NCBI GenBank assembly: GCA_946620695.1
Contig: CAMONU010000006.1
Coordinates: 17,479-81,478 of the forward strand
Length of the DNA: 64,000 nucleotides
Origin: an uncultured Lachnospiraceae bacterium
GTDB taxonomy: Bacteria > Bacillota > Clostridia > Lachnospirales > Lachnospiraceae
Reading direction: 5' to 3'
The position numbers were made by a program, and so were the translations under genes. This document shows positions 1 through 61,560 of this stretch, piece by piece. Within the stretch, counting starts at the first letter, position 1. Each line of letters opens with the position of its first letter. The notes under the pieces were generated by a model that was not told where the DNA came from, made no database searches, and saw only the letters and a list, made by a program, of their open reading frames with translations.

Positions 1-303
1 GAAGCGATTCCCGCGGACGGGAGCGATATCTGCTATGTGGAGATTGCCTTCAGGGACAAAGACGGCATCCTGAATCCGGAGGCAAAGACGCCGGTCACGG
101 TCTCCGCCGAAGGTCCCGGCATGATCCTGGGATTCGGAAGCGCGGATCCGGAATCGGAGGAAAACTTCTTTGACATGACGGCTGTACCCTTCGAGGGGCG
201 CCTGAGAGCGGCTGTCCGTGGGACAGGAGAAAAGGGCAGGATCACGGTCAGCCTTTGTGCTGAAGGCATGGATCCGGTGAAAGTGGAGATTTCCGCAGAA
301 TAA
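1..303 (+). CDS. C-terminal end of a glycoside hydrolase family 2 (beta-galactosidase-like) protein, 5'-truncated by the window edge
   Basis: Frame is open from base 1 (EAIPADGSDICYVEIAFRDKDG...GFGSADP...GRLRAAVR...G.ITVS) to TAA at 301-303; resembles the terminal Ig-like domain of GH2 enzymes. Confidence 0.7.
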   Translation, partial: EAIPADGSDICYVEIAFRDKDGILNPEAKTPVTVSAEGPGMILGFGSADPESEENFFDMTAVPFEGRLRAAVRGTGEKGRITVSLCAEGMDPVKVEISAE

Positions 304-435
304 AGGCCGCAAGATAAAGCGCGAAGAATAGAGTGCGCAGAATAAAGTGCGCAGAATAGAGTGCGCAGAATAAAGTGCGCAGAATAAAGTGCGAAGAATA
401 AAGGGCGCAGAATAAAGAGCAACAGCATAAAGAGC
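295..435 (+). repeat. Tandem repeat, ~14-bp unit (GCGCAGAATAAAGT), about 9-10 degenerate copies
   Basis: First unit is the gene end GCA GAA TAA (A-E-stop); unit read directly from the sequence. Confidence 0.9.
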
Positions 436-442
436 ACGAAAA

Positions 443-474
443 CGGCAGCCGGGGAGCTTTCTCACCGGCTGCCG
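443..474. terminator. Hairpin between convergent genes, probable bidirectional terminator
   Basis: CGGCAGCCGG / CCGGCTGCCG 10-bp stem. Confidence 0.6.
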
Positions 475-491
475 CTGTATATACTCAGTCT

Positions 492-779
492 TTATTTCAG
501 GAAGGCTGCGTCCGCCCATCCCCACATGCTGTTAAAGCAGACATACCTGTAATAGCAGGCCATACCGTTGATGCCGCTGCCCGGGGTGATGGTGCCTTTT
601 GTGGAAACTGTATAGCCGGGGTAGAGTTTCGCGATCTCATTGTAGCTGTTATAAGCCGCTTCTGACCTGAGCGGAAGATAGGATCCTCCGCAGTCCCCCA
701 CGATCATCTGATATTCGGAAAGGCTGCCGCTTTCAGCGGAGTTCTTTTCCGCAGTGCCTGTCATATTCTTTTCTTCCAT
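492..779 (-). CDS. Small protein with a bacterial SH3 (SH3b)-like domain
   Basis: YLPLRSEAAYNSYNEIAKLYPGYTV...WGWADAAFL resembles clostridial SH3b repeats; AAGGAG RBS upstream of ATG. Confidence 0.5.
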   Translation of the reverse strand: MEEKNMTGTAEKNSAESGSLSEYQMIVGDCGGSYLPLRSEAAYNSYNEIAKLYPGYTVSTKGTITPGSGINGMACYYRYVCFNSMWGWADAAFLK

Positions 780-883
780 ATCCGATTGCTCCTTCGTTAT
801 ATATTTTGTGAAGCATTTTTTCTATTATATCCCTTTGGCCTTCCTTTGCGCAAGTATCATGGCGGATTGACGAAAATGGTGTA

Positions 884-939
884 CCGTTTCTTACGTACAG
901 GCACGACGAACCGGAACCTGATTTCAAACAGTCCGTGAA
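884..939 (-). mobile_element. Dispersed MITE/REP-like element, copy A (one arm plus core)
   Basis: Reverse complement reads TTCACGGACTGTTTGAAATCAGGTTCCGGTTCGTCGTGCCTGTACGTAAGAAACGG, matching the copies at 13633, 17516 and 59299. Confidence 0.8.
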
Positions 940-1141
940 GGCTGACAAAATGTTGATTATTGCGAATAATTGAGCAAGAATTATGCTTTTTTCCAACAAA
1001 GAAATGTGGTATATTATTAAAAAAGTCCGTCGTTTTAGACAATAGTATCGACGCTTTCCCGTCTTTATCCGGGAATCTGCAGAAACGGCGGAGACGCTGC
1101 AGGCAGTCGGAGCATATCTGTGAGGGAAAGGAGTGGAGGAT

Positions 1142-2095: not shown

Positions 2096-2107
2096 GGGGG
2101 TGAGCTG

Positions 2108-4796: not shown

Positions 4797-4800
4797 GTAC

Positions 4801-4900
4801 GTTTCATGTGTCTGTGTTTCCGTGTTTGCGTTTCTGTGTTCGGGTTTCCTGTGCTTGCGTCTCTGTGTTCGGGTTTTCTGTGTCCGCGTTTCCTGTGTCT
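4801..4900. repeat. GT-rich degenerate tandem repeat, ~29-bp period
   Basis: CTGTGTTCGGGTTT at 4834 and 4863, with further degenerate units on both sides. Confidence 0.7.
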
Positions 4901-4958
4901 GGCACAGTTTTTTTCCGGGCCGTTTCTTTTGTTGAAGCAGGCGGTTTTTTGATATAAA

Positions 4959-6719
4959 ATGATCTGCGTGAAAGCGCCGGTTTACGGCATTTCACAGAAG
5001 AAAGAGAGCAGAAGGGAGACAGCACCCTTGGATAGTTATAAACAAAAAGAGCATCTGAATTATCCGGAGAAGACGCTGACGCAGATGGTCGAGGCCATGG
5101 CGGAGCAGTATCCGGAAGAGCCCGCGTATGAGTTTTACGGAAAAAAGACTTCCTACAGAAGCTTTGCAGACCGGATTCACCGTGCGGCGAAGGCATTTCT
5201 CGCAGCCGGAATCAGGCGGGATGACGCGGTTACCATCTGCATGCCGAATGTACCGCAGGCCATTGACTGTTTCTACGCCCTGAACCGGATCGGCGCGGTG
5301 GCCAATATGGTGCATCCCCTGTCCGCTGAAAAGGAGATCACATTCTATCTCAATATCTCTGAAAGCCGTATGATCCTGACCATGGACATGTTTACGGAGA
5401 AGGTGGAGCGGGCGGTCGCGGAAGCGGATCATCCGGTCACAGTCCTGGTTGCCAGGATGCAGGAGGAACTTCCGCTGCACCTTGCGGGGCTTTATACGCT
5501 GAAAGCAGGCCTGCAGTACCTGAAATTTCCGAATACAGACCATGCCATTCTCTGGAATAAATTTTTAAGAAGCGGTGAAGGCCAGGTTCTTCCGGAACCG
5601 GTTTTCGACCGGGAGCATACTTCCGTGATTCTCTATTCGGGCGGGACCAGCGGGACACCGAAGGGAATCTGCCTGTCCGACTACAATATCAACGCCTGCG
5701 CTCTCCAGGCCCGTGAGGCGATGGGGGAGGTGTTCCGGCCGGGATTGAAGATGCTCAGCTGCATGCCCCTGTTCCATGGCTTCGGACTGGGTATCAACAT
5801 TCATACCGTCCTGATCCATGGTGTCTGCTGCCTGCTGATGCCTTCTTTTAACAATAAAAGTTACGCGCAGGCCATGATCCGGAAGAAGCCGAATTTTCTC
5901 GCGGGCGTGCCGACCATCTATGAAGCCCTTCTGCATATCCCGGAGCTGGAGGGTCAGGACCTGAGTTTTCTGCTCGGAATGTTCTGCGGGGGAGATTCCC
6001 TGTCCGTGGAACTGAAAAAGAAGATGGACCGCTTCCTGAAAGCGCACGGAGCGGGGATCCAGATCCGGGAAGGCTATGGTCTGACGGAATGCGTCACGGC
6101 GAGCTGCCTGACGCCGAAAGGAACCTACCGGGAGGGCAGTATCGGCCTTCCTTTCCCGGATACCGAATACCGGATCGTAAAGCCGGGTACCGACCAGCTG
6201 ATGCCGCCCGGGGAAGAGGGGGAGATTATTCTGACCGGCCCGTCCGTGATGCTGGGCTACCTGAAAAATCCTGAGGAGACCGCAGAGACGCTCCGCGTTC
6301 TTTCTGACGGGAAACGCTGGCTTTATACGGGCGATCTGGGACATATGGATGAAGATGGATATGTGTATTTCCGCCAGCGCCTGAAGCGGATGATCATTAC
6401 CAACGGCTACAATGTATATCCGGGCCAGCTTGAGAATATCATCGACAGCCTGGAGGAGGTCTCCATCTCCTGCGTGATCGGGGTTCCGGATCAGCGGAGA
6501 ATGCAGCGGGTGAAAGCTTTTGTAGTCCTGAAGGACGGCTGCGAACCGTCGGATGCCCTGAAGGAAAAGATCATGGATACGCTCCGGCTTCATATTGCGA
6601 AATATGCGCTGCCCAGGGAGATCGAGTTCCGCAGTGTACTGCCGAAGACTCTGGTGGGCAAAGTGGCCTTCCGGAAACTGGAGGAAGAGGAAGCGCAGAA
6701 AACCCGGCAGAAGCAGTGA
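4959..6719 (+). CDS. Long-chain acyl-CoA synthetase / AMP-dependent ligase
   Basis: YSGGTSGTPKG (AMP-binding), EGYGLTE, YTGDLG, PKTLVGK motifs; true start may be TTG 5028 (GGGAG RBS). Confidence 0.9.
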   Translation: MICVKAPVYGISQKKESRRETAPLDSYKQKEHLNYPEKTLTQMVEAMAEQYPEEPAYEFYGKKTSYRSFADRIHRAAKAFLAAGIRRDDAVTICMPNVPQAIDCFYALNRIGAVANMVHPLSAEKEITFYLNISESRMILTMDMFTEKVERAVAEADHPVTVLVARMQEELPLHLAGLYTLKAGLQYLKFPNTDHAILWNKFLRSGEGQVLPEPVFDREHTSVILYSGGTSGTPKGICLSDYNINACALQAREAMGEVFRPGLKMLSCMPLFHGFGLGINIHTVLIHGVCCLLMPSFNNKSYAQAMIRKKPNFLAGVPTIYEALLHIPELEGQDLSFLLGMFCGGDSLSVELKKKMDRFLKAHGAGIQIREGYGLTECVTASCLTPKGTYREGSIGLPFPDTEYRIVKPGTDQLMPPGEEGEIILTGPSVMLGYLKNPEETAETLRVLSDGKRWLYTGDLGHMDEDGYVYFRQRLKRMIITNGYNVYPGQLENIIDSLEEVSISCVIGVPDQRRMQRVKAFVVLKDGCEPSDALKEKIMDTLRLHIAKYALPREIEFRSVLPKTLVGKVAFRKLEEEEAQKTRQKQ

Positions 6720-6860
6720 TGCCGCGGGATATCTTTTAAGAGTCGACAGAATCAAATAATGCCGCGGGATATCTTTTAAGAGTTCGACAGAATCAAATAA
6801 ATGCCGCGGGGGATATGTTTAAGGGTATTGAAGCGCTTAGAAGCGCCGCGGGGATATAAG
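6719..6860 (+). repeat. Tandem repeat, 40-42-bp unit, two near-perfect plus two decayed copies
   Basis: ATGCCGCGGGATATCTTTTAAGAGTCGACAGAATCAAATA at 6719 and 6759; decayed starts at 6801 and 6845; begins on the ligase stop codon. Confidence 0.9.
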
Positions 6861-6881: not shown

Positions 6882-7778
6882 ATGAGCATACATGCATTTA
6901 AGCGGAAAAGTGTCAAAGACCGTCCGGATGGAAAATATGTCAGGGATATCACGGGAATTCAGGCGCTCATGATGAATATCTATCCGAACCGGACGGATTC
7001 GGAGGTGTATCTGTCTGATCAGTTCGACGCTACGGAGCTGCTGAAATATCTGGAAAAGAAAAACGCGGAACATCCGGATTATAAGACGACCCTTTTCCAC
7101 TGCGCCTTGACTGCTCTTGCCAGAATGGTGAAGGAACGCCCGTATCTGAATCGTTTTATTCAGGGCAGGCGCATGTACCAGCGATATGAGATCAGCCTGA
7201 GTTTCGTGGCAAAGCGCTTTTTTAAGGATGGCGCGGAGGAAGCTCTGATGGTTCTGACGCCCTCCGATGAGGATACCCTGGATTCCATCAGCCGTCAGAT
7301 CGTGGGCGACGTGACGCAGATGAGAAAGAACCCGGCAAAGAAGACCGGGAGCGACGCGGTCATTGACAACCTGGCAAAGCTTCCGAGACCTTTGCTGATG
7401 CTGGTCAGCAAGCTGATCCGGATCCTGGATTTCTGGGGACATCTGCCTCATTTTGTCTGGGAGACCGACGTTAATTACTCCACGATCCTGGCCAGCAATC
7501 TGGGCTCGATCAAATGCCCGAGCGTGTATCACCATCTGAACAATTACGGGACCAATTCCATCATGGTTACCATCGGAACCCTCCACAAGGAGCAGGTGCT
7601 GATGCCGGACGGCAGCGTGCAGGTCCGGGACATGATCGATATCGGGGCAACTCTGGACGAGCGGATCGCCGACGGCTTTTATTTTGCAAGAAGCCTGAAG
7701 CTGATCAAGTATATCTTTGAAAATCCGGAGATTCTGGAGCAGCCCATCGGGACGCCTTCCGGCTTTGAATATAAATAA
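6882..7778 (+). CDS. Stand-alone 2-oxoacid dehydrogenase E2-like (CAT-fold) acyltransferase domain protein
   Basis: SNLGSI and DERIADG (variant of DHRxxDG) motifs; no lipoyl domain; ATG 6882 chosen over 6801, which lies inside the repeat. Confidence 0.7.
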   Translation: MSIHAFKRKSVKDRPDGKYVRDITGIQALMMNIYPNRTDSEVYLSDQFDATELLKYLEKKNAEHPDYKTTLFHCALTALARMVKERPYLNRFIQGRRMYQRYEISLSFVAKRFFKDGAEEALMVLTPSDEDTLDSISRQIVGDVTQMRKNPAKKTGSDAVIDNLAKLPRPLLMLVSKLIRILDFWGHLPHFVWETDVNYSTILASNLGSIKCPSVYHHLNNYGTNSIMVTIGTLHKEQVLMPDGSVQVRDMIDIGATLDERIADGFYFARSLKLIKYIFENPEILEQPIGTPSGFEYK

Positions 7779-9986: not shown

Positions 9987-12542
9987 TTATCGATTCATAA
10001 GCCATCCCTTGATCTCGGATACGCCTTTGAACTTGACGAATCCGTCCTGATCAATCAGAACAAGGGTCGGCGCCTGTTTTACACCGTATTTGCCGACAAG
10101 TTCTTTCTCCTCGTTGGCGTTCAGCGGTTCATAGTCCACGCCTGCCCGGTCAAGGAGCGCGCCCGCCGCCTTGCAGTTGGGACATGTGGGCGTCTTGAAG
10201 AGAAGGATCGTGGAGCCGGTCAGTCCGGAAGCGTCCCGGAGAGAATCTTCAGCTGCTGCGTTTTCAGTCGCTGCAGACTCAGACTGCGCTGCTGCAGTCC
10301 CGGCAGGAACAGAGTGCTGCATCTGTGCATCCGCAGCAGGAGCTGCCTGTGCTGCCGCTGCGTTCTCCGCAGGAGCTGTCTGCACTGATGTCGCAGCGTT
10401 CTCAGCAGGAGCTGCCTGTGCCGCCGGCTCACTGTCCACCGGCGCCGGAAGCGGTCCGGTATGGGTCAGGTGAGAATGGCCGATATTGTACACCAGACGG
10501 TCCTTATACTCCTGGGCCTTGCCGTCGTTCCAGTTCTGGACCGGACGGTAATAACCGGTGATGCGGCTGTAAACCTCTGTCTTCTGGCCGCAGATGGGGC
10601 AGGTGAACTGCTCGCCGGTCAGATAGCCATGGTCCTTGCAGACCGAATAGGTCGGGGACATGGTGTAGTAAGGCAGCTTATAGTTTTCCGCGATCTTGCG
10701 GACCAGGTTCGCAGCTGCTTTCCAGTCCGGAAGCTTCTCACCAAGGAAGGCGTGGAAGACGGTTCCCGAGGTGTAGAGGGTCTGCAGGTCGTCCTGAATA
10801 TCCAGAGCGGAGAAGATGTCTTCGCTGTATCCCACCGGAAGATGGGAGGAATTCGTATAGTAGGGCGTTCCGTTCATATTCGCGGTAATGATATCCGGGA
10901 ACAGCTCCTTGTCGTGCTTTGCGAAGCGGTAGGTGGTGGACTCTGCCGGCGTTGCCTCCAGGTTGTAGAGGTCGCCGTACTTTTCCTGATAGTCGGAGAG
11001 GCGCTTGCGCATATGGTTGAGCACGTCGCGCGTGAAGCGCTGTACCCGGGCGTCCGTCAGATCCGCGCGCAGCCACTTGGCGTTCAGTCCCACCTCGTTC
11101 ATGCCGATCAGGCCGATGGTGGAGAAATGGTTGCTGAAGGTTCCGAGGTACCTCTTCGTATAGGGATAAAGTCCCTGCTCCAGAAGCTTGGTGATGACCG
11201 TTCTCTTGGTCTTCAGGCTGCGGGCGGACAGATCCATGAGTTTGTCCAGACGGTCGTAGAAATCGGCCTCATCCGCCGCCAGGTAAGCGATTCTGGGCAT
11301 GTTGATGGTCACGACGCCGATGGAACCGGTTGACTCTCCGGAACCGAAGAAGCCGCCGGACTTCTTGCGCAGCTCACGCAGGTCGAGGCGGAGTCTGCAG
11401 CACATGGAGCGGACGTCGCTGGGCTCCATGTCCGAATTGATATAGTTGGAGAAATACGGAGTGCCGTATTTGGCTGTCATCTCAAAGAGAAGCTTGTTGT
11501 TCTCGGTTTCGCTCCAGTCAAAGTCCCTTGTGATGGAGTAGGTCGGGATCGGATACTGGAATCCGCGGCCGTTGGCGTCGCCTTCGATCATGATCTCGAT
11601 GAAGGCCTTGTTCACCATATCCATCTCTTTCTGACAGTCGCCGTAGGTGAAATCCATCTCCCTGCCGCCGATGATGGCCGGAAGGTTCTTCAGGTCGTTC
11701 GGGCAGGTCCAGTCCAGGGTAATGTTGGAGAAAGGCGCCTGCGTGCCCCAGCGGCTGGGCGTATTCACGCCGTAGATGAAGGACTGGATGCACTGCTTGA
11801 CTTCCCTCTGGGACAGATTATCCACCTTGACAAAAGGCGCAAGGTAGGTGTCGAAGGAGGAAAATGCCTGCGCGCCGGCCCACTCATTCTGCATGATGCC
11901 GAGGAAGTTCACCATCTGGTTGCAGAGGGTGGAGAGGTGGTTGGCGGGAGAGGATGTGATCTTCCCCGGAACGCCCCCGAGTCCTTCCTGGATCAGCTGC
12001 TTCAGGCTCCAGCCCGCGCAGTATCCGGTAAGCATGGAAAGGTCGTGCAGATGGATCGCCGCACTGCGGTGCGCCCTGGCGACTTCATCGTCATAGACCT
12101 CGCTCAGCCAGTAGTTGGCCGTGATGGCGCCGGAGTTGGACAGAATCAGTCCGCCCACGGAGTAGGTGACTGTCGAATTCTCCTTGACGCGCCAGTCATT
12201 GATCTGCAGATAGTTGTCGATGACTTCCTTGTAGTTCAGGAGCGCGGAATTGACATTGCGCACCTTCTCGCGCTGTCTGCGGTACAGGATATATGCCTTG
12301 GCGACATCCGAATAACCGGACTCGGAGAGTACCTTCTCCACACTGTCCTGGATGTTCTCAACCGTGATCTGCTCGTCGATGATCTTGCTCTCGAAATCAG
12401 ATGTCACATGCAGCGCGATCAGTTCGATCACGCTCGGATGATACTGTTTATCCAGTGCGCGGAATGCCTTGGTGATGGCATCCGTTATCTTGCTGATCTG
12501 AAATTCTACAATCTGACCGTCTCTTTTTACTACTTTATACAA
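9987..12542 (-). CDS. nrdD: Class III anaerobic ribonucleoside-triphosphate reductase with N-terminal ATP cone and C-terminal glutaredoxin/NrdH-like domain
   Basis: YKVVKRDG ATP cone, RSMCCRL finger loop, CKDH/CPIC Zn site, YSRITGYYRPV glycyl-radical motif, Ala/Pro linker, then TCPNCK redoxin; likely TTG start at 12542 behind GGAAGGGGG. Confidence 0.95.
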   Translation of the reverse strand: MYKVVKRDGQIVEFQISKITDAITKAFRALDKQYHPSVIELIALHVTSDFESKIIDEQITVENIQDSVEKVLSESGYSDVAKAYILYRRQREKVRNVNSALLNYKEVIDNYLQINDWRVKENSTVTYSVGGLILSNSGAITANYWLSEVYDDEVARAHRSAAIHLHDLSMLTGYCAGWSLKQLIQEGLGGVPGKITSSPANHLSTLCNQMVNFLGIMQNEWAGAQAFSSFDTYLAPFVKVDNLSQREVKQCIQSFIYGVNTPSRWGTQAPFSNITLDWTCPNDLKNLPAIIGGREMDFTYGDCQKEMDMVNKAFIEIMIEGDANGRGFQYPIPTYSITRDFDWSETENNKLLFEMTAKYGTPYFSNYINSDMEPSDVRSMCCRLRLDLRELRKKSGGFFGSGESTGSIGVVTINMPRIAYLAADEADFYDRLDKLMDLSARSLKTKRTVITKLLEQGLYPYTKRYLGTFSNHFSTIGLIGMNEVGLNAKWLRADLTDARVQRFTRDVLNHMRKRLSDYQEKYGDLYNLEATPAESTTYRFAKHDKELFPDIITANMNGTPYYTNSSHLPVGYSEDIFSALDIQDDLQTLYTSGTVFHAFLGEKLPDWKAAANLVRKIAENYKLPYYTMSPTYSVCKDHGYLTGEQFTCPICGQKTEVYSRITGYYRPVQNWNDGKAQEYKDRLVYNIGHSHLTHTGPLPAPVDSEPAAQAAPAENAATSVQTAPAENAAAAQAAPAADAQMQHSVPAGTAAAQSESAATENAAAEDSLRDASGLTGSTILLFKTPTCPNCKAAGALLDRAGVDYEPLNANEEKELVGKYGVKQAPTLVLIDQDGFVKFKGVSEIKGWLMNR

Positions 12543-13986: not shown

Positions 13987-15408
13987 ATGGGAAAAGAGCC
14001 GGAGTATAAACAGAAACTGGACGCCTGGATCGACGCGCACACAGATGAGATGATCGGGGATCTGAAGACCCTGGTGCGCATTAATTCCGTGAGAGGTGAG
14101 GCGAAGGAAGGGATGCCCTACGGGGAAGGCCCTGCCGCAGTGGTCGCGGCCATGGAGAAACTGATGGCGTCCTACGGCCTGTCTGTCACCAACTATGAAA
14201 ATTACTGTGTGACGGGCGACCTTAATGGTGCCGGGGAGAAGGCGCTGGATATCCTGGCCCATCTGGATGTGGTGCCGGTCTCTGAAGACTGGACCGTGAC
14301 GAAGCCATTTGAGCCCCTGGTCGTCGGGGACAGGATCTACGGGCGCGGAACATGCGACGATAAAGGACCGGGCGTGGCGGCCCTGTATGCCGTCAGAGCA
14401 GTGAAAGAGCTGGGATTTGCTTTAAAACGCGGTGTGAGGCTGGTCTACGGCTCCGACGAGGAGTGCGGCTCCTCGGATCTGGAATATTACTACAGCAAAG
14501 AGAAAGAGGCGGAATATACCTTCTCGCCCGACGCGAATTTCCCGCTGATCAATATCGAGAAGGCACGTCTTTCCAGGAGCTTCTGCGCTGAGGCTGCGCA
14601 GGGAGAGGGAAGGCCGGCCCTTGTCAGCATCGAGGCGGGCAGCAAGGCGAACGTGGTTCCGGGCAAGGCGGAAGCGGTATTTGAGGGCCTGAAGGAAGAG
14701 GATCTGGCAAAAGCGGTGAAGCAGCTGGAGGAAGAGACCGGCGTGACGGTCAGCTGTACATCGGACGGGGGCCGCTGCAGCGTGGAACTGAAAGGTGCCG
14801 CCGGCCATGCGGCAAGCCCGGCAGCGGGCAATAATGCCCTTACAGCCCTCCTGAGACTGATTGAGCTTCTTCCCCTTGCAGCCGGCCCGGCCGCGGATAG
14901 GATGCATGCCCTGGCGAGGCTGTTCCCGCACGGTGACTGGCGCGGGGAGGCTCTGAAGGTCGCCATGAGCGACGAGGAGAGCGGCAGTCTCACGCTCAGC
15001 CTGGATGTGCTGAATTATAAAGACGGAAAGATTGAGGGAATCTTTGACTGCCGGGCGCCTCTCTGCGCGACGGAGGAGAATCTGACCTGTGTCATGCGGA
15101 AGGCCCTTGCGGAAGCAGGATTTTCCATGGAGGAAGGCGGCATGACACCCGCCCATGCGGTCAGCGCGGACTCCTTCTTTGTGCGTACGCTCCTTGACTG
15201 CTACGAACTATACTCCGGCCGGAAGGGGAAGACCCTGGCGATCGGCGGCGGGACCTACGTTCATGAGCTGGAGCGCGGAGTCGCCTTCGGATGCGCGGAG
15301 GAGGGCGTGGATACCCATATGCACGGAGATGACGAGTACATGAAGATTTCCATCATGGTGATGAGCGCCAAGATTTTCGCGGACGCGATCCTGCGCCTCT
15401 GCATGTAA
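13987..15408 (+). CDS. pepV: M20 family dipeptidase (PepV/Sapep-like)
   Basis: LAHLDVVP, GRGTCDDKG, SDEECGS, HMHGDDE motifs; GGAGG RBS before ATG 13987. Confidence 0.87.
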   Translation: MGKEPEYKQKLDAWIDAHTDEMIGDLKTLVRINSVRGEAKEGMPYGEGPAAVVAAMEKLMASYGLSVTNYENYCVTGDLNGAGEKALDILAHLDVVPVSEDWTVTKPFEPLVVGDRIYGRGTCDDKGPGVAALYAVRAVKELGFALKRGVRLVYGSDEECGSSDLEYYYSKEKEAEYTFSPDANFPLINIEKARLSRSFCAEAAQGEGRPALVSIEAGSKANVVPGKAEAVFEGLKEEDLAKAVKQLEEETGVTVSCTSDGGRCSVELKGAAGHAASPAAGNNALTALLRLIELLPLAAGPAADRMHALARLFPHGDWRGEALKVAMSDEESGSLTLSLDVLNYKDGKIEGIFDCRAPLCATEENLTCVMRKALAEAGFSMEEGGMTPAHAVSADSFFVRTLLDCYELYSGRKGKTLAIGGGTYVHELERGVAFGCAEEGVDTHMHGDDEYMKISIMVMSAKIFADAILRLCM

Positions 15409-15464
15409 GGAAAAACAAAGCATCCGTCTTATACTTTATCAAGAGTGCCTGCGCCTCTGCATGT
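15390..15464 (+). repeat. 17-bp direct repeat of the pepV 3' end
   Basis: CCTGCGCCTCTGCATGT at 15390 and 15448. Confidence 0.85.
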
Positions 15465-15479
15465 TAAGAAAAAGATACT

Positions 15480-16075: not shown

Positions 16076-16110
16076 AGCTATTCTTACCCCCATAGCTGAT
16101 TATGATTACT

Positions 16111-16152
16111 ATTCACGGCCTGTTTGAAATCGGGTTCTGGTTCGTTGTGAAT
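16111..16152 (+). mobile_element. Dispersed MITE/REP-like element, copy C (internally shortened)
   Basis: ATTCACGGCCTGTTTGAAATCGGGTTCTGGTTCGTTGTGAAT. Confidence 0.8.
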
Positions 16153-17471: not shown

Positions 17472-17500
17472 TTGACTTTTCATTTCTTTAATAATATTAT
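17472..17500 (+). promoter_or_regulatory. Sigma-A type promoter for the MBOAT operon
   Basis: TTGACT-17 bp-TATTAT. Confidence 0.6.
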
Positions 17501-17515
17501 ATCCGCGATGTTATG

Positions 17516-17596
17516 ATTCACAGCCTGTCTGAAATCAGGTTACGGTTTGCCGTGCCTGCGGGAGAAACAGCTTCTGATTTCAGAGAAGCCGTGAAT
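17516..17596 (+). mobile_element. Dispersed MITE/REP-like element, copy D (complete, 81 bp)
   Basis: Left arm ATTCACAGCCTGTCTGAAATCAG; right arm CTGATTTCAGAGAAGCCGTGAAT (23-bp imperfect inverted repeat); core GTTACGGTTTGCCGTGCCTGCGGGAGAAACAG. Confidence 0.85.
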
Positions 17597-17657
17597 CGTC
17601 ACTTTTCAGACCGACGGGACGGCGTTTCGGGCGCCGTTTTTTAAGAGGTTTATCAAT

Positions 17658-21999: not shown

Positions 22000-22060
22000 A
22001 ATCAGGTTCTGATTCGTCGTATCTGCAGGTAAGAAGCGGGTTCTGATATCAGATATGAAC
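21983..22060 (+). mobile_element. Dispersed MITE/REP-like element, copy E, overlapping the folA stop codon
   Basis: GTTCACGGGCAATTTGAAATCAGGTTCTGATTCGTCGTATCTGCAGGTAAGAAGCGGGTTCTGATATCAGATATGAAC. Confidence 0.8.
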
Positions 22061-28004: not shown

Positions 28005-28019
28005 AGAAGTGCATTGAAC

Positions 28020-28144
28020 GAAGAAGAAATATAGTATAGAGAAAAGATAGAAGAAGACAGAAGAGAAAAGACAGAAGAACAGAGCCAGAAGAGAAAAGTC
28101 AGAAGAATAGAGCAAGAAGAGAAAAGACAGAAGAGAAAATAAAG
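28020..28144 (+). repeat. Purine-rich degenerate tandem repeat (AGAAGAGAAAAGAC-like units)
   Basis: Several AGAAGAGAAAAG(A/T)CAGAAG units in the pgm-nucleoside hydrolase gap. Confidence 0.75.
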
Positions 28145-37042: not shown

Positions 37043-37073
37043 CGGGGTTCCCTCATCCGGGAACCCCGTTTTT
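37043..37073. terminator. Bidirectional terminator between the permease and deoD
   Basis: AAAAA-CGGGGTTCCC / GGGAACCCCG-TTTTT. Confidence 0.8.
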
Positions 37074-37110
37074 GAGCGATAAAGCCCGAAAGTAGCTGCC
37101 ATGCCTGCAT

Positions 37111-42077: not shown

Positions 42078-42168
42078 GCAGAAGCGAGGAAGAAAGGCCG
42101 AAGCGAAGAAGAGAGACCGAAGCGAAGAAGAGAGACAGCAGCGAAGAAGAAAGACAGAAACGAAGAAG
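42078..42168 (+). repeat. Tandem repeat, 19-bp unit, 5 copies
   Basis: GCGAAGAAGAGAGAC-like units recurring at 42084, 42103, 42122, 42141, 42160. Confidence 0.85.
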
Positions 42169-45160: not shown

Positions 45161-45368
45161 AACTGCATAAAAGAAAGGGACCGCTGCAGGGGATTGCAGG
45201 CCACACGCATATTCCACCTGGCAGCTTTGCTGGCTTAATGGGACAGTAACATTGTGATACTTTTTGTTGAAAGGGCGGTGTTTATTTCCGCTGAAATATG
45301 TTATTCTATACGGGACGAAATAAACGGCCTGTTTCAGTGAGGCTGACTGAGAAAGGGAGATATGCGCT

Positions 45369-47297: not shown

Positions 47298-47427
47298 GCC
47301 CACGGCTGTGCATACTGCAGACGCGGCTGGGCCCACGGCTGTGTATATTGCAGACGCGGCTGGGCCCACGGCTGTGTATATTGCAGACGCGGCTGGGCTC
47401 ACGGCTGTGTATATTGCAGACGTGGCC
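47298..47427. repeat. Tandem repeat, 33-bp unit, 4 copies
   Basis: GCCCACGGCTGTGTATATTGCAGACGCGGCTGG at 47298, 47331, 47364, 47397. Confidence 0.92.
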
Positions 47428-48438: not shown

Positions 48439-48990
48439 ATGAGAGTGATAGCAGGGAAGGCGGGCAGCCTTCCGCTTCGTACTGTGACCGGCCTGAATAC
48501 AAGGCCGACGACAGACCGGATCAAGGAAACTTTATTTAATATGATCGCGGACCAGCTTCCAGGCGGCAGGTTTCTGGACCTGTTTGCCGGCTCCGGTGCG
48601 ATCGGGATCGAGGCACTCAGCAGGGGGGCGGCCGCGGCTGTATTTGTCGAGAATAACCGGCAGGCCTTGCGCTGCATCCATGAAAACCTGAATTTTACCC
48701 GTCTTGCGCCGCAGGGGCGTGTCCTGGCCGGGGATGTCATCCAGACAGTTCAGGATATGAACGGGGAGAAGCCGTTTACCATCATCTTCATGGATCCGCC
48801 CTATGACTGTGAACTGGAGAAAAGAGTCCTGGAAGCGCTTCAGGGCAGCACACTGGTCGATGAGAATACCGTGATTATCGTGGAAGCATCGAAGGATACC
48901 GATTTTTCCTATCTGCAGGAGCTGGGATTTCAGCCTGTAAGGGTGAAGGAATACAAGACCAACAAGCATGTTTTCCTGAAGAAAGTCTGA
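48439..48990 (+). CDS. rsmD: 16S rRNA m2G966 methyltransferase
   Basis: MRVIAG, RPTTDRIKE, LDLFAGSG, EALSRG, FMDPPY. Confidence 0.95.
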   Translation: MRVIAGKAGSLPLRTVTGLNTRPTTDRIKETLFNMIADQLPGGRFLDLFAGSGAIGIEALSRGAAAAVFVENNRQALRCIHENLNFTRLAPQGRVLAGDVIQTVQDMNGEKPFTIIFMDPPYDCELEKRVLEALQGSTLVDENTVIIVEASKDTDFSYLQELGFQPVRVKEYKTNKHVFLKKV

Positions 48991-49110
48991 TGCAGGACTG
49001 CCGGAGGATGTCATCCGGGATGAATCAGCTTTTCCTGAAGAAGCCTGATGCAGGACTGCCGGAGGCTGACATCCGGTATAAATCAGCATTTTCCTGAATA
49101 AAGCCTGAAG
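48971..49110 (+). repeat. Tandem repeat, 59-bp unit, ~2.4 copies, starting in the rsmD 3' end
   Basis: TTTTCCTGAAGAAAG(T/C)CTGATGCAGGACTGCCGGAGG... at 48971, 49030 and partial 49089. Confidence 0.9.
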
Positions 49111-49171
49111 GTAAGTTATCAGAAGTCCGGATTCAGAAACAGCCGGCATTTCCCTCAAGAAAGTGTGACAC

Positions 49172-49660
49172 ATGAAAAGAGCCGTTTATCCGGGCAGCTT
49201 TGATCCGGTAACTTATGGACATCTCGACATCATAGCGCGATCGGCCGAGATTATGGATGAACTGGTTGTCGGAGTCCTGATCAATCAGGCAAAAACACCA
49301 TTGTTTTCTGTAGAAGAACGTGTTAATATGTTACATATTCTGACGAAAAATCTCAGTAATGTCCGGATTGAATCATTCTCCGGACTTTCTGTCGATTTCG
49401 CCAGGGAAGCCGGGGCCGGTTTTATCGTTCGCGGGCTCCGTGCGATCACGGATTTTGATTATGAACTGCAGATGTCCCAGACCAACCGGATCATGGCACC
49501 GGAGATCGATACGATCTTTCTTACGACGAGCCTGCAGTACGCCTATCTGAGTTCCACCACCGTCAGGGAGGTGGCTTCCTATGGCGGTGATATTTCGAAT
49601 TTTGTTCCGCCTGAGGTGGAAAAGGCGGTGATGAAAAAGTTCGGCTTCAGCAGACCCTGA
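49172..49660 (+). CDS. coaD: Phosphopantetheine adenylyltransferase
   Basis: [35 protein letters not shown]. Confidence 0.97.
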
Positions 49661-49737
49661 GAGTGGAAGTATCGGACTTTGTTCCGCCCAAGGTGGAAAA
49701 GGCGGTAATGAAAAAGTTCGGCTTCGACAGACCCTGA
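49601..49737 (+). repeat. Duplication of the last 60 bp of coaD (77-bp period)
   Basis: TTTGTTCCGCC...GGTGGAAAAGGCGGT(G/A)ATGAAAAAGTTCGGCTTC...GACCCTGA at 49601 and 49678. Confidence 0.92.
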
Positions 49738-49954
49738 CAGGGCAGTTCTTCCTTCTGCCGGTATTCAGACCGGCGTCAGGCGGACAGGCCGGGCGATTCA
49801 TTTTGTATGTATACCCGCGGGCGATTGTGGCTTTCGCATACCGGTATGTACCGCGGTATATATACCTGCACAGCGCAGGATTAAGGGGAGAGCAAGTAGT
49901 TAAGCAGGGTGGCTGTCCGGGGGAGCGGACAGAAGAGTGAGGAGAGTGTGAGTT

Positions 49955-50680: not shown

Positions 50681-51547
50681 ATGGCACAGGTGAGGCTGGA
50701 CCGTTTTCTGGCGGAGGAAGGCGTCGGAACGAGGTCGGAAGTGAAAAAACTGATCCGTTCCGGACGTGTCCGGGTCAACGGGGCCGATGTCCGGCAGCCG
50801 GACTGCAAGCTTGATCCGGAGAAGGACAGCGTCGAGGCAGATGGAAAGAAGATCGGACAGACAGGATTTCTTTACCTGATGATGAACAAGCCCGGCGGGG
50901 TTCTGAGCGCTACCAGGGACGGACGCACGCAGACCGTGATCAATCTGGTAAAAGAGTCCTGGGCGGATAAGCTTTTTCCCGCGGGCAGGCTGGACAAGGA
51001 CACGGAAGGCTTTGTCCTGCTGACCAACGACGGGATGCTTGCCCACAGACTCCTGTCCCCCCGAAGGCATGTATCCAAGACTTATTTTGCGATTGTGAGC
51101 GGTTTTGTGACCGAGGATGACGTCCGCCTGTTCCGGGAAGGCCTGGAGATCGGGGAGAAGCGGAAGACGCTCCCTGCCCAGCTGGTCCGGCTGACGGTTG
51201 ACGGGGATTTTCTTGAAGAAAAGATCCACCATCCTGGCGTACAGGAAGTTAAAAATCCCGACGCGCCGCTGCTTGTGAGCAGGGCTCAGATGCAGGAATT
51301 CTGTATGCGGGGCATCGCCCTGTCGGACTATGCCCGCTGCGGGGAAGGGGAATGCTGCGTGGCCGTAGCGGTCACGGAAGGTAAATTCCACCAGATCAAG
51401 CGCATGTTTGAGGCAGTGGGACGTGAGGTCCGTTTCCTCAAGAGGATCGCGATCGGGACAGTGTGCCTGGACAGAAGCCTCGGGAGCGGGCAGTACCGGC
51501 CCTTAACGGAGGAGGAACTGAACCTTCTCAGGAATACGGAAGCATAA
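50681..51547 (+). CDS. RsuA-family rRNA pseudouridine synthase with S4 domain
   Basis: RLDRFL, NKPGG, AGRLDKDTEG, EGKFHQIKRM; GGAGG RBS before ATG 50681. Confidence 0.92.
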   Translation: MAQVRLDRFLAEEGVGTRSEVKKLIRSGRVRVNGADVRQPDCKLDPEKDSVEADGKKIGQTGFLYLMMNKPGGVLSATRDGRTQTVINLVKESWADKLFPAGRLDKDTEGFVLLTNDGMLAHRLLSPRRHVSKTYFAIVSGFVTEDDVRLFREGLEIGEKRKTLPAQLVRLTVDGDFLEEKIHHPGVQEVKNPDAPLLVSRAQMQEFCMRGIALSDYARCGEGECCVAVAVTEGKFHQIKRMFEAVGREVRFLKRIAIGTVCLDRSLGSGQYRPLTEEELNLLRNTEA

Positions 51548-51643
51548 TAGATGCGGCAGCATAATGGGTCTGGCGGCATAATGGATCCGGCAGCAAGATG
51601 GGTCCGGCGGCATAATGAATCCGGAAGCATAATGGGTCCGGCA
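51542..51643 (+). repeat. Tandem repeat, 17-bp unit, 6 copies, first unit containing the upstream stop codon
   Basis: GCATAATGGGTCCGGCA-like units at 51542, 51559, 51576, 51593, 51610, 51627. Confidence 0.9.
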
Positions 51644-51671
51644 GACAGGCGGCGAAGGGAGCATACAGCGG

Positions 51672-55101: not shown

Positions 55102-55138
55102 AAAGCCCGAAGCCCGGAAGCGGCGTCGCCTGTGTGTG

Positions 55139-55265
55139 AAGGCCGCGAGTGTTATGACCGGGCTGCCGTGGCCCGGCGTGCCGCAGTGCTGCTCGTAAAG
55201 GCTGCGAGTGCTATTATCGGGCTGCCGGGACATACCGTACCGCGGCGCCCGTGCGCAAAGGCCAG
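55139..55265 (+). repeat. Degenerate tandem repeat, ~59-60-bp period
   Basis: AAGGC(C/T)GCGAGTG...CGGGCTGCCG at 55139 and 55198, partial third copy at 55258. Confidence 0.7.
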
Positions 55266-56943: not shown

Positions 56944-56951
56944 GCTCCTAC

Positions 56952-56980: not shown

Positions 56981-57002
56981 AACGAGATAGCTGATTTAAT
57001 GA

Positions 57003-57016
57003 TTTAGCACGCTAAA
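57003..57016. promoter_or_regulatory. Palindromic operator, HisR-box-like
   Basis: TTTAGC-AC-GCTAAA just downstream of the promoter; resembles the TTTA-N6-TAAA core of Firmicute HisR sites (from memory). Confidence 0.5.
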
Positions 57017-57068
57017 GCATACAGAAACATCTGAAGCATGCAAAAATATCTAAAGCATACAAAAGTAT
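57012..57068 (+). repeat. Tandem repeat, 19-bp unit, 3 copies, in the hisZ leader
   Basis: CTAAAGCATACAGAAACAT / CTGAAGCATGCAAAAATAT / CTAAAGCATACAAAAGTAT. Confidence 0.8.
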
Positions 57069-57092
57069 CTTAGAAACGGGGAACATTCATAT

Positions 57093-58304
57093 ATGAATCA
57101 GAAGATTCTTCATACACCGGAAGGACTCCGCGACATCTATTCCGATGAGTGCGAAAGAAAACAGATCCTGGAGCAGAGGCTGCATCAGGTTCCTGCTTCC
57201 TACGGATACAGGGATATCGAGACGCCCTCCATCGAATTTTTTGATGTATTCGGGTCCGATATCGGGACTATTCCCTCCCGAGATCTTTTTAAGTTTTTTG
57301 ACAGAGAAGGAAATACGCTGGTTCTGCGTCCGGACTTCACGCCGTCGATCGCAAGAGCCGCCAGCCGCTATTTTCAGAATGTGAATCATCCGATCCGCCT
57401 GTGCTATATAGGGAAAAGTTTTGTAAATTACTCCGGCCTGCAGGGAAGACTGAAGGAGAATACACAGATGGGAGCCGAGCTGATCGGCGCCTCCGGCGCA
57501 GACGCGGATGCCGAGGTCATCGCCATGGCGACGGAGACCATGCTGGCCGCGGGACTGGGGGAATTCCAGATCAGCGTCGGACACGTTGCTTTCTTTGAGA
57601 GCCTGGCGGAGGAAGCCGGATTTGATGAAGACACCGTTTTAAGACTCCGGAATCTGATCCATAACCGCAATACCTTCGGCGTTGAAAAGCTGCTGAGCAG
57701 CCTGGAAGAAGAGAGGAAAAGCGCGTCACAGCCTCTGGATGAGCGGATCCGCAGGCTTCTGATCGCTCTTCCCACTCTTACCGGAGGCGAAGAGTTGCTG
57801 GAAAAAGCATTCTCCATGTCGGAGGGACTGAAAGCTCAGGAAGCGGTGGTCCGCCTGAAGAAAGTTCTGGAGCTTCTGAAGCTTTACGGCCTTGAGCGCT
57901 ATACTTCCTTCGATCTGGGGATGCTGTCCGTGTATATGTACTATACAGGGATTATTTTCCGCGGATATACGTACGGGACCGGGGAAGCCGTGGTAAAAGG
58001 CGGACGCTATGACGCCCTGCTGAAGCATTTCGGCAAAGACCTGCCCTCCATCGGCTTTGTAGTCGTCATCGGACAGCTGCTGAATGCTTTGCAGCGTCAG
58101 AAGATCGAGATCCTTCCTGCGCATGAGCGTTACCTGATCCTGTATAGAGAAGAAGCGGCGAAGGAAGCCGTGAGCAGGGCTGCCGCCTGGCGAAGACAGG
58201 GAAAATATACAGAACTGATGCTGCTTGCCTCTGAGAAGGACATTGAGAAGAGCGATGAGGAATACCGCCGCGAGGGCGGATATGCGGGCGTAATCCGTCT
58301 GTAA
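57093..58304 (+). CDS. hisZ: ATP phosphoribosyltransferase regulatory subunit
   Basis: TPEGLRD, LRPDFTPSIAR, QMGAELIG, YYTGIIF, GGRYD. Confidence 0.95.
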   Translation: MNQKILHTPEGLRDIYSDECERKQILEQRLHQVPASYGYRDIETPSIEFFDVFGSDIGTIPSRDLFKFFDREGNTLVLRPDFTPSIARAASRYFQNVNHPIRLCYIGKSFVNYSGLQGRLKENTQMGAELIGASGADADAEVIAMATETMLAAGLGEFQISVGHVAFFESLAEEAGFDEDTVLRLRNLIHNRNTFGVEKLLSSLEEERKSASQPLDERIRRLLIALPTLTGGEELLEKAFSMSEGLKAQEAVVRLKKVLELLKLYGLERYTSFDLGMLSVYMYYTGIIFRGYTYGTGEAVVKGGRYDALLKHFGKDLPSIGFVVVIGQLLNALQRQKIEILPAHERYLILYREEAAKEAVSRAAAWRRQGKYTELMLLASEKDIEKSDEEYRREGGYAGVIRL

Positions 58305-58411
58305 GAAGGGCATACGCGGGCGTAATCCGCCTGTAAGAAGGGCATATGCGGGCGTAATCCGCCTGTAAGAAAGGCATACGCAGACGCAATCTGTCTGTAA
58401 GAAGGGCATAC
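58284..58411 (+). repeat. Tandem repeat, 32-bp unit, 4 copies, first unit containing the hisZ stop
   Basis: GCGGGCGTAATCCG(T/C)CTGTAAGAAGGGCATAC at 58284, 58316, 58348, 58380. Confidence 0.93.
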
Positions 58412-58590
58412 GCCGCTGCCGCCAGCGTTCTTGAGCATCGCGGCAGGGAAAGACATATATTTACCCACGGCTGCGCATCCATCCGAAGCCATTGAGTCAA
58501 AGTGCGATCCATCGTTTCGGAAGGAGGTATCCGAGGCTGTTAGTCAGAGTGCAATATGCCGTTTCGGGAGAAGTAAGGGAAGAAAATCTT

Positions 58591-59235
58591 ATGAGATATC
58601 TCACCATAGCCCTGACAAAGGGCAGGCTAGCGAAGCAGACGATGCAGCTTCTGGAGAAGATCGGTATCTCCTGCGAGGAGATGACGGATCCGGATACCAG
58701 AAAGCTGATCTTTGTAAATGAAGAACTGAAGCTCAGATTTTTCCTGGCCAAGGGGCCGGATGTCCCGACCTATGTGGAGTACGGGGCGGCGGATATCGGC
58801 GTGGTCGGGGAAGACACGATCATGGAGGAAGGACGGAAGATCTATGAAGTCCTTGATCTGGGCTTCGGGAAATGCCGGATGTGCGTCGCCGGCCCCGAGG
58901 AGGCGGGAGCTCTCCTGAACGGTCAGGAGCAGATCCGGGTGGCGACAAAGTACCCGAAGATCGCGAGAGATTATTTTACGGAGCGGAAAAACCAGACTGT
59001 GGAGATCATCAAGCTGAACGGTTCCATCGAGCTTGCACCGATTGTCGGCCTGGCCGAAGTGATCGTTGATATCGTGGAGACCGGATCCACTTTGAAGGAG
59101 AACGGCCTGAAGGTGCTGGAGGAGGTCTGCCCCCTTTCGGCCAGAGTGGTGGTGAATCCGGTCAGCATGCGGATGGAAAATGCCCGCATTACAAAACTTC
59201 TGGATGACATGAACCGGGTACTTATGCAGATATAA
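58591..59235 (+). CDS. hisG: ATP phosphoribosyltransferase, short form
   Basis: IALTKGRL, DVPTYVEYG, ATKYP, IVDIVETG; start ATG 58591. Confidence 0.96.
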   Translation: MRYLTIALTKGRLAKQTMQLLEKIGISCEEMTDPDTRKLIFVNEELKLRFFLAKGPDVPTYVEYGAADIGVVGEDTIMEEGRKIYEVLDLGFGKCRMCVAGPEEAGALLNGQEQIRVATKYPKIARDYFTERKNQTVEIIKLNGSIELAPIVGLAEVIVDIVETGSTLKENGLKVLEEVCPLSARVVVNPVSMRMENARITKLLDDMNRVLMQI

Positions 59236-59298
59236 GAGCACGGAGACGGTGCTGCAGTTTGTTTTGGACAATCCATATTCTGCCTGAAACTGGTTACT

Positions 59299-59382
59299 AT
59301 TCATGGTCATTTTGAAATCAGGTTCTCGTTCGTCGTGCTTGCACGTAAGAAAAAGGTTCTGATTTCAAATAAGGCCTGCGAA
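59299..59382 (+). mobile_element. Dispersed MITE/REP-like element, copy F (near complete)
   Basis: ATTCATGGTCATTTTGAAATCAGGTTCTCGTTCGTCGTGCTTGCACGTAAGAAAAAGGTTCTGATTTCAAATAAGGCCTGCGAA. Confidence 0.85.
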
Positions 59383-59475
59383 GCAGTTTGATTTACAGAT
59401 GCGGCTGCAAAACAGTCATCTGTGGATATTGAGTCAGGGAATTTAAACTTCGTTTTAGGAGGAGGAAAGGGACAT

Positions 59476-60774
59476 ATGAGGATCGTCAGACTGACAGAGG
59501 AGACGAGAAAAGATCTTTTGAACAATCTGCTGAAGCGCAGCCCCAACAACTATTCCGAGTACGAGGGGGCTGTCAGCCGGATCGTCACGGACGTCCGTGA
59601 ACATGGAGACGAAGCTCTTTTCGCCTATACGGAGAAGTTTGACCATACAAAGCTGACGAAAGAGAATATCACGGTGACGGAGGAGGAGATCCGGGAAGCC
59701 TATGAGCTGGTCGATCCGAAGCTGGTCGATGTGATCCGCAAGGCTCTTAATAATATCCGGACCTATCATGAGAAGCAGCGCCGCTACAGCTGGTTTGATT
59801 CCGATGAGAGCGGTGTTCTTCTGGGACAGAAGGTCACGCCCCTCCAGCGTGTCGGCGTATACGTTCCGGGAGGGAAGGCAGTCTACCCCTCCTCTGTTCT
59901 GATGAATATCGTACCGGCGAAGGTTGCCGGCGTTTCACAGATCATCATGACCACGCCTCCGGGAAAGGACGGTAAAATCAGTCCCAATACCCTGGTTGCC
60001 GCCCATGAGGCGGGGGCCGACCTGATCTATAAGGCGGGCGGCGCCCAGGCCATCGCGGCTCTTGCCTTCGGGACGGACAGCATTCCGAAGGTGGACAAGA
60101 TCGTCGGGCCGGGGAATATCTTTGTGGCCCTTGCCAAGAAGATGGTCTACGGCTTTGTCGGAATCGACTCCATCGCGGGTCCGAGCGAGATCACCGTTCT
60201 GGCGGATGAGACGGCCAATGCCCATTTTGTGGCGGCGGACCTGCTCAGCCAGGCGGAGCATGATGAACTCGCATCGGCGATCCTCGTTACCACCAGCGAA
60301 AAACTGGCCGAAGATGTATCGGCTGAGATCAATCAGTATCTGAAGAAGCTCTCCAGAAGGGAAATCATAGAGAAATCCCTGGAGAATTACGGATATATCC
60401 TTCTTGCGGACAGCCTGGAAGAAGGAATCGGCACTGTGAACTCGATCGCGCCGGAGCATCTGGAGATCGTCACTTCGAATCCTTTCGAAACGATGATGAA
60501 GATCCGCAACGCAGGCGCCATCTTCCTGGGAACCTGGTCCAGCGAGCCGCTGGGCGATTATTTCGCCGGGCCGAACCATATCCTGCCGACAAACGGAACC
60601 GCGCGCTTCTTCAGCCCGCTGGGCGTGGATGATTTTGTCAAGAAATCCAGCATTGTATATTATTCCGAAGAGGCACTGCGGCAGGTGCATGCGGATATCG
60701 AGCAGTTCGCGAAAGCGGAGCAGCTCACGGCGCACGCGAATTCCATCGCGGTGCGTTTCGGAACAGAACTGTAA
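59476..60774 (+). CDS. hisD: Histidinol dehydrogenase
   Basis: [41 protein letters not shown]. Confidence 0.97.
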
Positions 60775-60859
60775 ACAGCAGTTTCAGCTCAGGCTGATCT
60801 GAATACGGCGCGCCCCGCCAGGCGGGGATGGCGTACAGTCGGCCGGATCGGGGGATGTT

Positions 60860-61447
60860 ATGGCACGGATCGCTGAAGTGGAGAGATATACGAAGGAGAC
60901 GAGCATAGAGGTTCAGCTGAACCTCGACGGGAGCGGGCAGGCTCAGATCGATACGGGTGTGGGCTTCTTTGACCACATGCTGGAGGGGTTTGCGCGTCAC
61001 GGCCTCTTTGACCTGACCATCAAGGTGGACGGAGACCTTCAGGTGGACGACCATCATACGATCGAGGATACCGGTATCGTCCTGGGCCAGGCGATCGCCA
61101 GGGCTGTCAAGGACAAACGGGGTATTCAGCGCTACGGAGACAGGATTCTGCCGATGGACGAGGTTCTCGTCCTGTGTGCGGTGGACCTCTGCGGCCGGCC
61201 TTACCTGCAGTTTGACGCCGAGTTTCAGGCGGATCGGATGGGCGACATGTCGACGCAGATGGTGAAGGAATTCTTCTATGCAGTGTCCTACAGCGCCATG
61301 ATGAATCTGCATCTGAAGGTGATTACTCCTGGAAATGACCATCATATGGCCGAGGCCATGTTCAAGGCTTTCGCGAAAGCGCTGGACCAGGCGGTCAGCT
61401 ATGATCCCAGGATTACCGATGTCCTCTCAACCAAAGGGACTATTTAA
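60860..61447 (+). CDS. hisB: Imidazoleglycerol-phosphate dehydratase
   Basis: FFDHML, DDHHTIED, NDHHMAEAMFKA, STKG. Confidence 0.97.
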   Translation: MARIAEVERYTKETSIEVQLNLDGSGQAQIDTGVGFFDHMLEGFARHGLFDLTIKVDGDLQVDDHHTIEDTGIVLGQAIARAVKDKRGIQRYGDRILPMDEVLVLCAVDLCGRPYLQFDAEFQADRMGDMSTQMVKEFFYAVSYSAMMNLHLKVITPGNDHHMAEAMFKAFAKALDQAVSYDPRITDVLSTKGTI

Positions 61448-61560
61448 GTGGCAGTCAAAGCCGCAGGTTGTCAAGGTGAAAATTCAGCGGCAGTCAGAGC
61501 TGAAGGTTGTCAAGGTAAAACATAAGCGACTGTCAGAGCAGCAGATTCATCAAGGCAAAT
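61444..61560 (+). repeat. Tandem repeat, 39-bp unit, 3 copies, first unit overlapping the hisB stop
   Basis: Units at 61444, 61483, 61522 sharing GTCA(A/G)AGC...TCAAGG. Confidence 0.8.

Follow-up and report, generated by a model that had tools for sequence, protein, structure and literature searches.

Tandem duplications of short, mutually unrelated units occupy many intergenic spacers in a 64,000-nucleotide (nt) stretch of the genome of an uncultured Lachnospiraceae bacterium (below, the window, C6:17479-81478 of a 3.0-Mb metagenome-assembled genome (MAG) of 128 contigs, 54% GC, 91% complete, labelled G000), and several of them run over the stop codon of the upstream gene. A first-pass annotation of the window had proposed a mutational process anchored at stop codons or gene ends and had held that selection on coding sequence explains the overlap less obviously than the intergenic location. 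Such a process is not needed, and a null model in which genes are kept intact accounts for the overlap. The arrays are, with fairly high probability, ordinary bacterial variable number tandem repeats (VNTRs), or minisatellites, placed by selection and geometry and not by a stop-linked process.

Arrays were detected with Tandem Repeats Finder (TRF), run on the window and genome-wide, and a repeat search was added in the window. Genes were called with a self-trained hexamer caller (2327 genes, 85.7% coding), and the gene identities named for the window arrays agree with Pfam searches. Records related to G000 are MAGs from the rumen that carry the labels uncultured Lachnospiraceae, Clostridiales or Clostridia; each genome compared was sampled in the same manner, by taking the leading 40 kb of its first contigs, and passed through the same pipeline. 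The closest relative compared, G011, is syntenic with the entire window at 81-92% nucleotide identity, and HisZ is 92% identical between the two genomes. Strain variants were sought among contigs from other assemblies encoding identical proteins.

In the whole 3.0-Mb genome, TRF returned 473 merged arrays (158 per Mb), of which 203 lie inside genes, 167 are purely intergenic, 74 overlap a stop, 25 overlap a start and 4 overlap both. The non-intragenic arrays thus number 270, with 78 running over a stop, and arrays make up 6.4% of intergenic DNA. When array positions were shuffled naively over the whole genome, as the first-pass annotation had proposed, 70 arrays were found that start within 60 nt upstream of a stop and pass it, against 19.6±4.5 expected, which is a 3.6-fold apparent enrichment. 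This figure is misleading because the null ignores the loss of duplications inside genes. In a gene-integrity null, each unit was instead placed with equal chance at any position of its pre-expansion gap at which the genes are preserved; this holds when the duplicated segment from a to b has b past the stop, so that the upstream gene is left untouched. Under this null the enrichment is gone: 63 stop overlaps were observed genome-wide against 55.2±5.1 expected, and 6 against 4.2 in the window, with a like result when margins of 10-50 nt before starts were imposed. Array edges show no peak at the stop, their density staying level between -30 and +20 nt of it, and the ratio of overlap depth to period is roughly uniform. 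The share of arrays overlapping a stop is also alike elsewhere, at 15/66 in five congeners and an outgroup and 78/270 here. Stop overlap is therefore the geometry expected of 14-77-nt units in spacers of ~100 nt, and the overlap which the first-pass annotation could not readily ascribe to coding selection follows from it.

Each array would arise alone, by local tandem duplication of sequence present at that site, likely when replication slips or switches template, with unequal recombination later altering the copy number. Selection would remove out-of-frame duplications within genes, and duplications over start codons, ribosome-binding sites and promoters would be disfavoured. Duplications that stay within the spacer, or that reach from the last codons to past the stop, would spare the protein and persist; given short spacers and units of 14-77 nt, about 30% of the surviving arrays would overlap a stop by geometry. 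The census agrees with these steps in several respects. Periods of intragenic arrays are nearly always multiples of three, and those of intergenic arrays show no such bias (77/227, 34%, p=0.89 vs one third). Array density per kb is 0.27 in divergent gaps, 0.62 in co-directional and 0.77 in convergent ones, and overlaps with start codons are scarce (18-29 arrays); the few start overlaps and thinly populated divergent gaps fit constraint on ribosome-binding sites and promoters. Units are locus-specific, 365/401 being without a second match in the genome, and the array-holding spacers of the window had no matches outside their own locus, save the spacer at 47298. In young two-copy arrays the junction microhomology has a median of 1 nt and reaches at least 8 nt in a quarter, a spread that favours none of the mechanisms over another.

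Copy number, or the presence of an array, varies between strains whose flanks are 98-99.9% identical. The 32-nt unit at hisZ/hisG is present in 1, 1, 2, 3 and 4 copies across samples whose flanks are 98.2-99.5% identical, the 19-nt array at recU/hisZ ranges from 3 to about 9 copies (one scaffold is gapped within the array), and the hisB array (61449-61571) is missing in two samples and identical in seven. Copy-number variation at near-identical flanks is how VNTRs behave and excludes an artefact of assembly. The rsmD/coaD array and the coaD tail duplication recur identically in two other assemblies, one an NCBI metagenome assembly (3673 nt at 99.7% identity), the other a Logan contig (99.9%), so that at rsmD/coaD copy number did not vary between these two near-identical assemblies; JGI contig L177 (3300041747) carries a compact rsmD/coaD junction. 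When L177 is compared with window positions 48545-49659, coaD is 98% and rsmD 85.5% identical, with the switch at the compact junction, which looks like a recombination breakpoint between lineages. Copies within an array differ by 5-25%, at hisZ mostly by transitions.

Every array listed in the first-pass annotation was recovered by TRF and the repeat search at, or a few bases from, its given position. The window arrays are as follows (coordinates are those of the window; + denotes the forward strand).

294-436, +, GH2 array: 14-nt unit x 8.9 (CGCAGAATAAAGTG); stop at 301-303
4800-4902, +, intergenic array: 15/29-nt unit, 113 nt past the upstream stop
6719-6810, +, acyl-CoA ligase array: 40-nt unit x 2.2, sharing only the final stop base
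15390-15473, +, pepV-like M20 peptidase repeat: two 26-nt copies (15390 and 15448), 58 nt apart, 92% identical
28038-28139, +, intergenic array: 14/28-nt purine-rich unit
42079-42168, +, intergenic array: 19-nt unit x 4.7, 19 nt past the stop
47298-47426, +, intergenic array: 33-nt unit x 3.9
48971-49171, +, rsmD/coaD spacer array: TRF part 48971-49108, 58 nt x 2.3
49595-49740, +, coaD tail duplication: 69-nt copies at 49595 and 49672, period 77, 88% identical
51537-51644, +, rsuA-like array: 17/34 nt; 17-nt unit x 6.4 (CGGCAGCATAATGGATC)
55136-55248, +, intergenic repeat: two 54-nt copies, 59 nt apart, 74% identical
57012-57070, +, recU/hisZ array: 19-nt unit x 3
58280-58413, +, hisZ array: 32-nt unit x 4.2, formed from the hisZ end (25 nt, TAA included) and 7 further nt
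61445-61571, +, hisB array: ~39-nt diverged units; TRF part 61445-61539, 39 nt x 2.4

The depth to which these arrays reach into the upstream gene covers a wide range: 1 nt is shared with the acyl-CoA ligase gene, 3 with hisB, 10 with the GH2 gene, 11 with the rsuA-like gene, 19 with the M20 peptidase gene, 20 with rsmD, 25 with hisZ and 66 with coaD. The arrays at 4800, 28038, 42079, 47298, 55136 and 57012 touch no stop codon. Copy 1 of the GH2 array takes in the TAA stop of the GH2 gene together with the 7 coding nt before it, and the array is placed between that stop and a conserved hairpin. At the peptidase gene a repeat straddling the stop had been reported with 17-nt copies; the straddling repeat is present, with copies of 26 nt, the first of which contains the stop codon. 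The rsmD/coaD spacer is built from the 19-nt end of rsmD (with its TGA), present 4 times with ~40 nt between copies, and the last rsmD-tail copy adjoins the coaD ATG just as in the compact junction of G011. The coaD duplication comprises the last 66 nt of coaD plus its stop. The hisB array starts at the hisB stop codon, which is all that it shares with the gene, and the stop of the rsuA-like gene is supplied by the first 17-nt unit of its array. The array at 47298 is the sole one in the window whose unit is found elsewhere in the genome, being related to a dispersed repeat family. A search of Rfam families gave no match in the window.

At most of the array sites the junction is compact in G011. 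The spacer between rsmD and coaD measures 3 nt in G011 and 181 nt here, the junction at 28005 measures 25 nt against 155 nt, and that between hisB and the next gene 69 nt against 220 nt; the rsmD/coaD junction is compact in G004, G012 and G026 as well. The GH2 site of G011 holds one lone sequence, GCCGAATAAAGG, and the array at 28038-28139 derives from the short ancestral spacer ACAGAAGAAAAG. At the GH2, 28005, hisZ, hisB, coaD and peptidase loci the unit can be seen to copy the ancestral sequence of that site as represented by G011. The acyl-CoA ligase array belongs to a 162-nt spacer at a site where G011 has an ATGA gene overlap; the downstream gene probably begins at 6882 (ATGAGCATACAT) and not at the start of the longest open reading frame, 6801. 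The C-terminal tail of the acyl-CoA ligase is 7 aa longer than that of G011 (window 6690-6719 vs G011:C10:90490-90440). The rsuA-like pseudouridine synthase is ~28 aa shorter at its C-terminus than the G011 orthologue (51510-51547 vs G011:C10:42797-42680); as judged from this alignment, array formation probably replaced or cut short the C-terminal tail.

The proposal that the arrays inflate spacers was borne out at the array junctions, most of which are compact in G011, and not for the window overall: summed over 45 conserved window junctions, spacers amount to 6874 nt here and 6605 nt in G011. The mean gap is 177 nt in G000 and 151 nt in G011. G011 has unrelated arrays of its own (on G011:C10, in reverse-complement coordinates), one of 33 nt x 3.4 at 65413-65524, where the window spacer is 17 nt, and one of 74 nt x 2.8 at 69562-69770, at hisZ/hisG. 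Junctions shared by the two genomes thus appear, from their sequences, to have expanded independently. With arrays of G011 at other junctions and nearly equal sums, spacer turnover would be genus-wide, G000 being the genome richest in recognisable arrays.

A lineage-specific excess of spacer tandem duplications, as the first-pass annotation had supposed, is real but modest. The sampled genomes gave these counts.

G000: 400 kb sampled, 38 non-intragenic arrays, 14 stop overlaps
G011: 385 kb sampled, 10 non-intragenic arrays, 0 stop overlaps
G003: 400 kb sampled, 18 non-intragenic arrays, 3 stop overlaps
G005: 400 kb sampled, 11 non-intragenic arrays, 5 stop overlaps
G004: 400 kb sampled, 9 non-intragenic arrays, 1 stop overlap
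G002: 212 kb sampled, 11 non-intragenic arrays, 3 stop overlaps
G024 (outgroup): 400 kb sampled, 7 non-intragenic arrays, 3 stop overlaps

The 38 arrays per 400 kb of G000 thus compare with 9-18 in four congeners and 11 per 212 kb in the fifth. Relative to the pooled congeners, intergenic arrays are up 2.1-3.2 fold in every identity (age) class. Inspection of the mismatch-repair genes, which had been suggested as a check, disclosed no defect: uninterrupted frames are present for MutS (892 aa) and MutL (713 aa), as they are for RecJ (667 aa) and XseA, the large subunit of exonuclease VII (ExoVII; 457 aa). Loss of mismatch repair or of an exonuclease was accordingly rejected as the cause, as far as these four genes and a 91% complete genome are concerned. 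Ku was not found in G000 or in the nine congeners searched, and end joining therefore does not set G000 apart.

A dispersed intergenic element of ~60-120 nt, separate from the tandem arrays, is present at ~100 loci in G000; in the window it lies at 883-947, 16097-16152, 17487-17611, 22000-22057, 37060-37110, 45196-45246 and 59279-59395. G011 has it 1-2 times per 385 kb, and none was present in what was sampled of the outgroup and four other congeners, a distribution that indicates a lineage-specific burst.

An apparent decay of copies away from the gene had also been described. Among stop-overlapping arrays with at least 3 copies (n=22), the gene-proximal pair is more alike than the distal pair (0.88 vs 0.81 identity, p=0.0013). 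Purely intergenic arrays viewed in the same orientation (n=40) show no polarity (0.84 vs 0.83, p=0.58). The decay is thus seen where a copy sits in the gene and is missing where none does. The simplest reading is that the copy in the gene is held by purifying selection, so that the proximal pair gathers roughly half the divergence; polar growth of the arrays is unnecessary.

A number of points weigh against the reading of the arrays as ordinary VNTRs placed by selection and geometry. A mild stop excess remains under the gene-integrity null (63 vs 55, z about 1.5). Intragenic arrays are only 1.3-1.5 fold up against the pooled congeners, and with the 2-3 fold rise of intergenic arrays a simple genome-wide mutator fits poorly. 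Single-copy or empty alleles occur in strains 1-2% diverged, though array copies differ by 5-25%; judged from the sequences, this divergence would need either old arrays with secondary collapse or unusually fast divergence of copies. For the ~40-nt inter-copy segment at rsmD/coaD and the acyl-CoA ligase unit, no source was found in the adjacent genes or the G011 junction, and local alignment of both to neighbouring gene ends gave P of about 0.1 to 0.47 against shuffles. The gene caller, moreover, was self-made and crude, with approximate start codons, and the relatives were only sampled (0.2-0.4 Mb each), from assemblies whose methods are not known. The rsmD array shares with the spacer downstream of coaD in G011 an 18-nt match that resembled a relic; it was taken as chance, since the motif recurs widely (E at least 0.07). 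An unusual duplication process, error-prone or inserting non-local templated sequence at operon junctions and perhaps favouring gene 3' ends, would explain the segments for which no local source was found, the 5-25% divergence of copies in strains otherwise 98-99% identical and the small stop excess; we consider it unlikely. We hold it about equally unlikely that a lineage-specific mutational process, tied to gene ends through transcription termination, ribosome release or transcription-coupled repair, makes duplications preferentially at stop codons. Such a process would accord with the naive 3.6-fold enrichment, the leftover excess of stop overlaps, the higher array density of gaps that contain a gene 3' end and the greater likeness of proximal copies in stop-overlapping arrays, but there is no spike at the stop, the excess is gone when genes are kept intact, purely intergenic arrays are without polarity, and array-poor congeners share the same stop-overlap fraction, while a shortage of arrays in divergent gaps would follow from constraint on promoters and 5' untranslated regions.

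The excess of arrays in G000 may be due to weaker purging, by relaxed selection or a reduced deletion bias that would let tandem arrays and a small mobile repeat alike build up in spacers, and not to more mutation. This is a variant within the VNTR explanation, to which we give tentative credence, somewhat short of an even chance. The burst of the dispersed ~100-nt element and the intergenic-specific excess hint at it and away from a general mutator; the contrast between intergenic and intragenic arrays holds in all age classes, and the repair genes examined are intact. Set against it is the total spacer length, which is barely above that of G011 in both mean gap and window sum. That the arrays are selected functional elements, such as translation-uncoupling spacers, RNA structures, small RNAs or arrays of binding sites, is slightly less probable still than a process tied to gene ends. 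Several arrays have taken the place of tight or overlapping junctions within operons, which must alter translational coupling, and strains differ in copy number as at contingency loci, yet the units are unrelated between loci, show no frame bias and include no Rfam match in the window, the same junctions are array-free in G011 and in some conspecific strains, and the copies decay freely. Least probable of all, to a degree close to negligible, is an artefact of assembling a short-read metagenome bin. The genome is in 128 contigs, with 14% of contig ends in arrays, but a divergence of 5-25% between copies is not something that an assembler invents, the structures are base-for-base the same in NCBI, Logan and ENA assemblies from other assemblers, and other copy-number alleles are cleanly assembled in further samples.

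Two side observations concern assembly and coding regions. Of the 256 contig ends, 36 (14%) lie inside tandem arrays, and several pairs of ends have a common unit (for example C3:1-224 with C34:28261-28405, and C14:1-167 with C39:23140-23201); longer arrays are the probable cause of these breaks in the assembly, and it should be possible to join some contigs across arrays. In-frame 36-nt tandem arrays were found at 10334-10426 in an nrdD-like gene and at 24297-24431 in a RecD2-like gene, both at break points of the alignment with G011, the linker regions there being built of repeats.

Bacterial VNTR or minisatellite loci are used in multiple-locus VNTR analysis (MLVA) typing of Mycobacterium tuberculosis, Yersinia pestis and Bacillus anthracis. 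The arrays described here resemble them in every defining respect: units of 10-100 nt are arranged head to tail and are specific to their locus, copies are imperfect, copy number varies between strains, and the arrays are mostly intergenic or else in frame inside genes. They differ in that their density (158 per Mb; 6.4% of intergenic DNA) is high for a free-living Firmicute, and in that many arrays here have replaced tight operon junctions. Mycobacterial interspersed repetitive units (MIRUs) are mobile units that insert at start codons and carry an internal open reading frame coupled at -4 nt (PMC12548453). The likeness to them lies in tandem units at operon junctions that touch the neighbouring stop and start codons. 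MIRUs, however, form one sequence family with in-frame reading frames, whereas units at different loci here have no common consensus, show no three-nt bias and are locally derived.

The nearest published parallel for a lineage-specific intergenic rise is Portiera aleyrodidarum BT, in which intergenic tandem repeats rose relative to the sister lineage, with indel bias and repair discussed as factors (Sloan and Moran 2013, PMC3673631). That genome has a spike of 7-bp microsatellites and much enlarged spacers (69% coding), and has lost dnaQ and other repair genes (PMC3673631). Here, by contrast, the units are heterogeneous (14-77 nt), coding density is normal (86%), and MutS, MutL, RecJ and ExoVII are intact. 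In marine Beggiatoaceae, TAACTGA direct repeats form many intergenic sets with stop codons within the unit (PMC4679880). The two cases are alike in having stop-containing intergenic direct repeats, and differ in that a single heptamer is used genome-wide there, while each locus here has its own unit and the stop is that of the neighbouring gene.

For repeat scans at gene ends in general, the result exposes a trap of method, as the 3.6-fold stop enrichment obtained by positional shuffling vanishes under a gene-integrity null. The 2-3 fold excess of arrays and the parallel burst of a dispersed repeat are of moderate interest for the evolution of genome architecture. For strain tracking, dozens of natural VNTR markers are available in this rumen lineage, and its arrays indicate that neutral duplications can pry apart tight, translationally coupled operon junctions within the divergence time of sister species.

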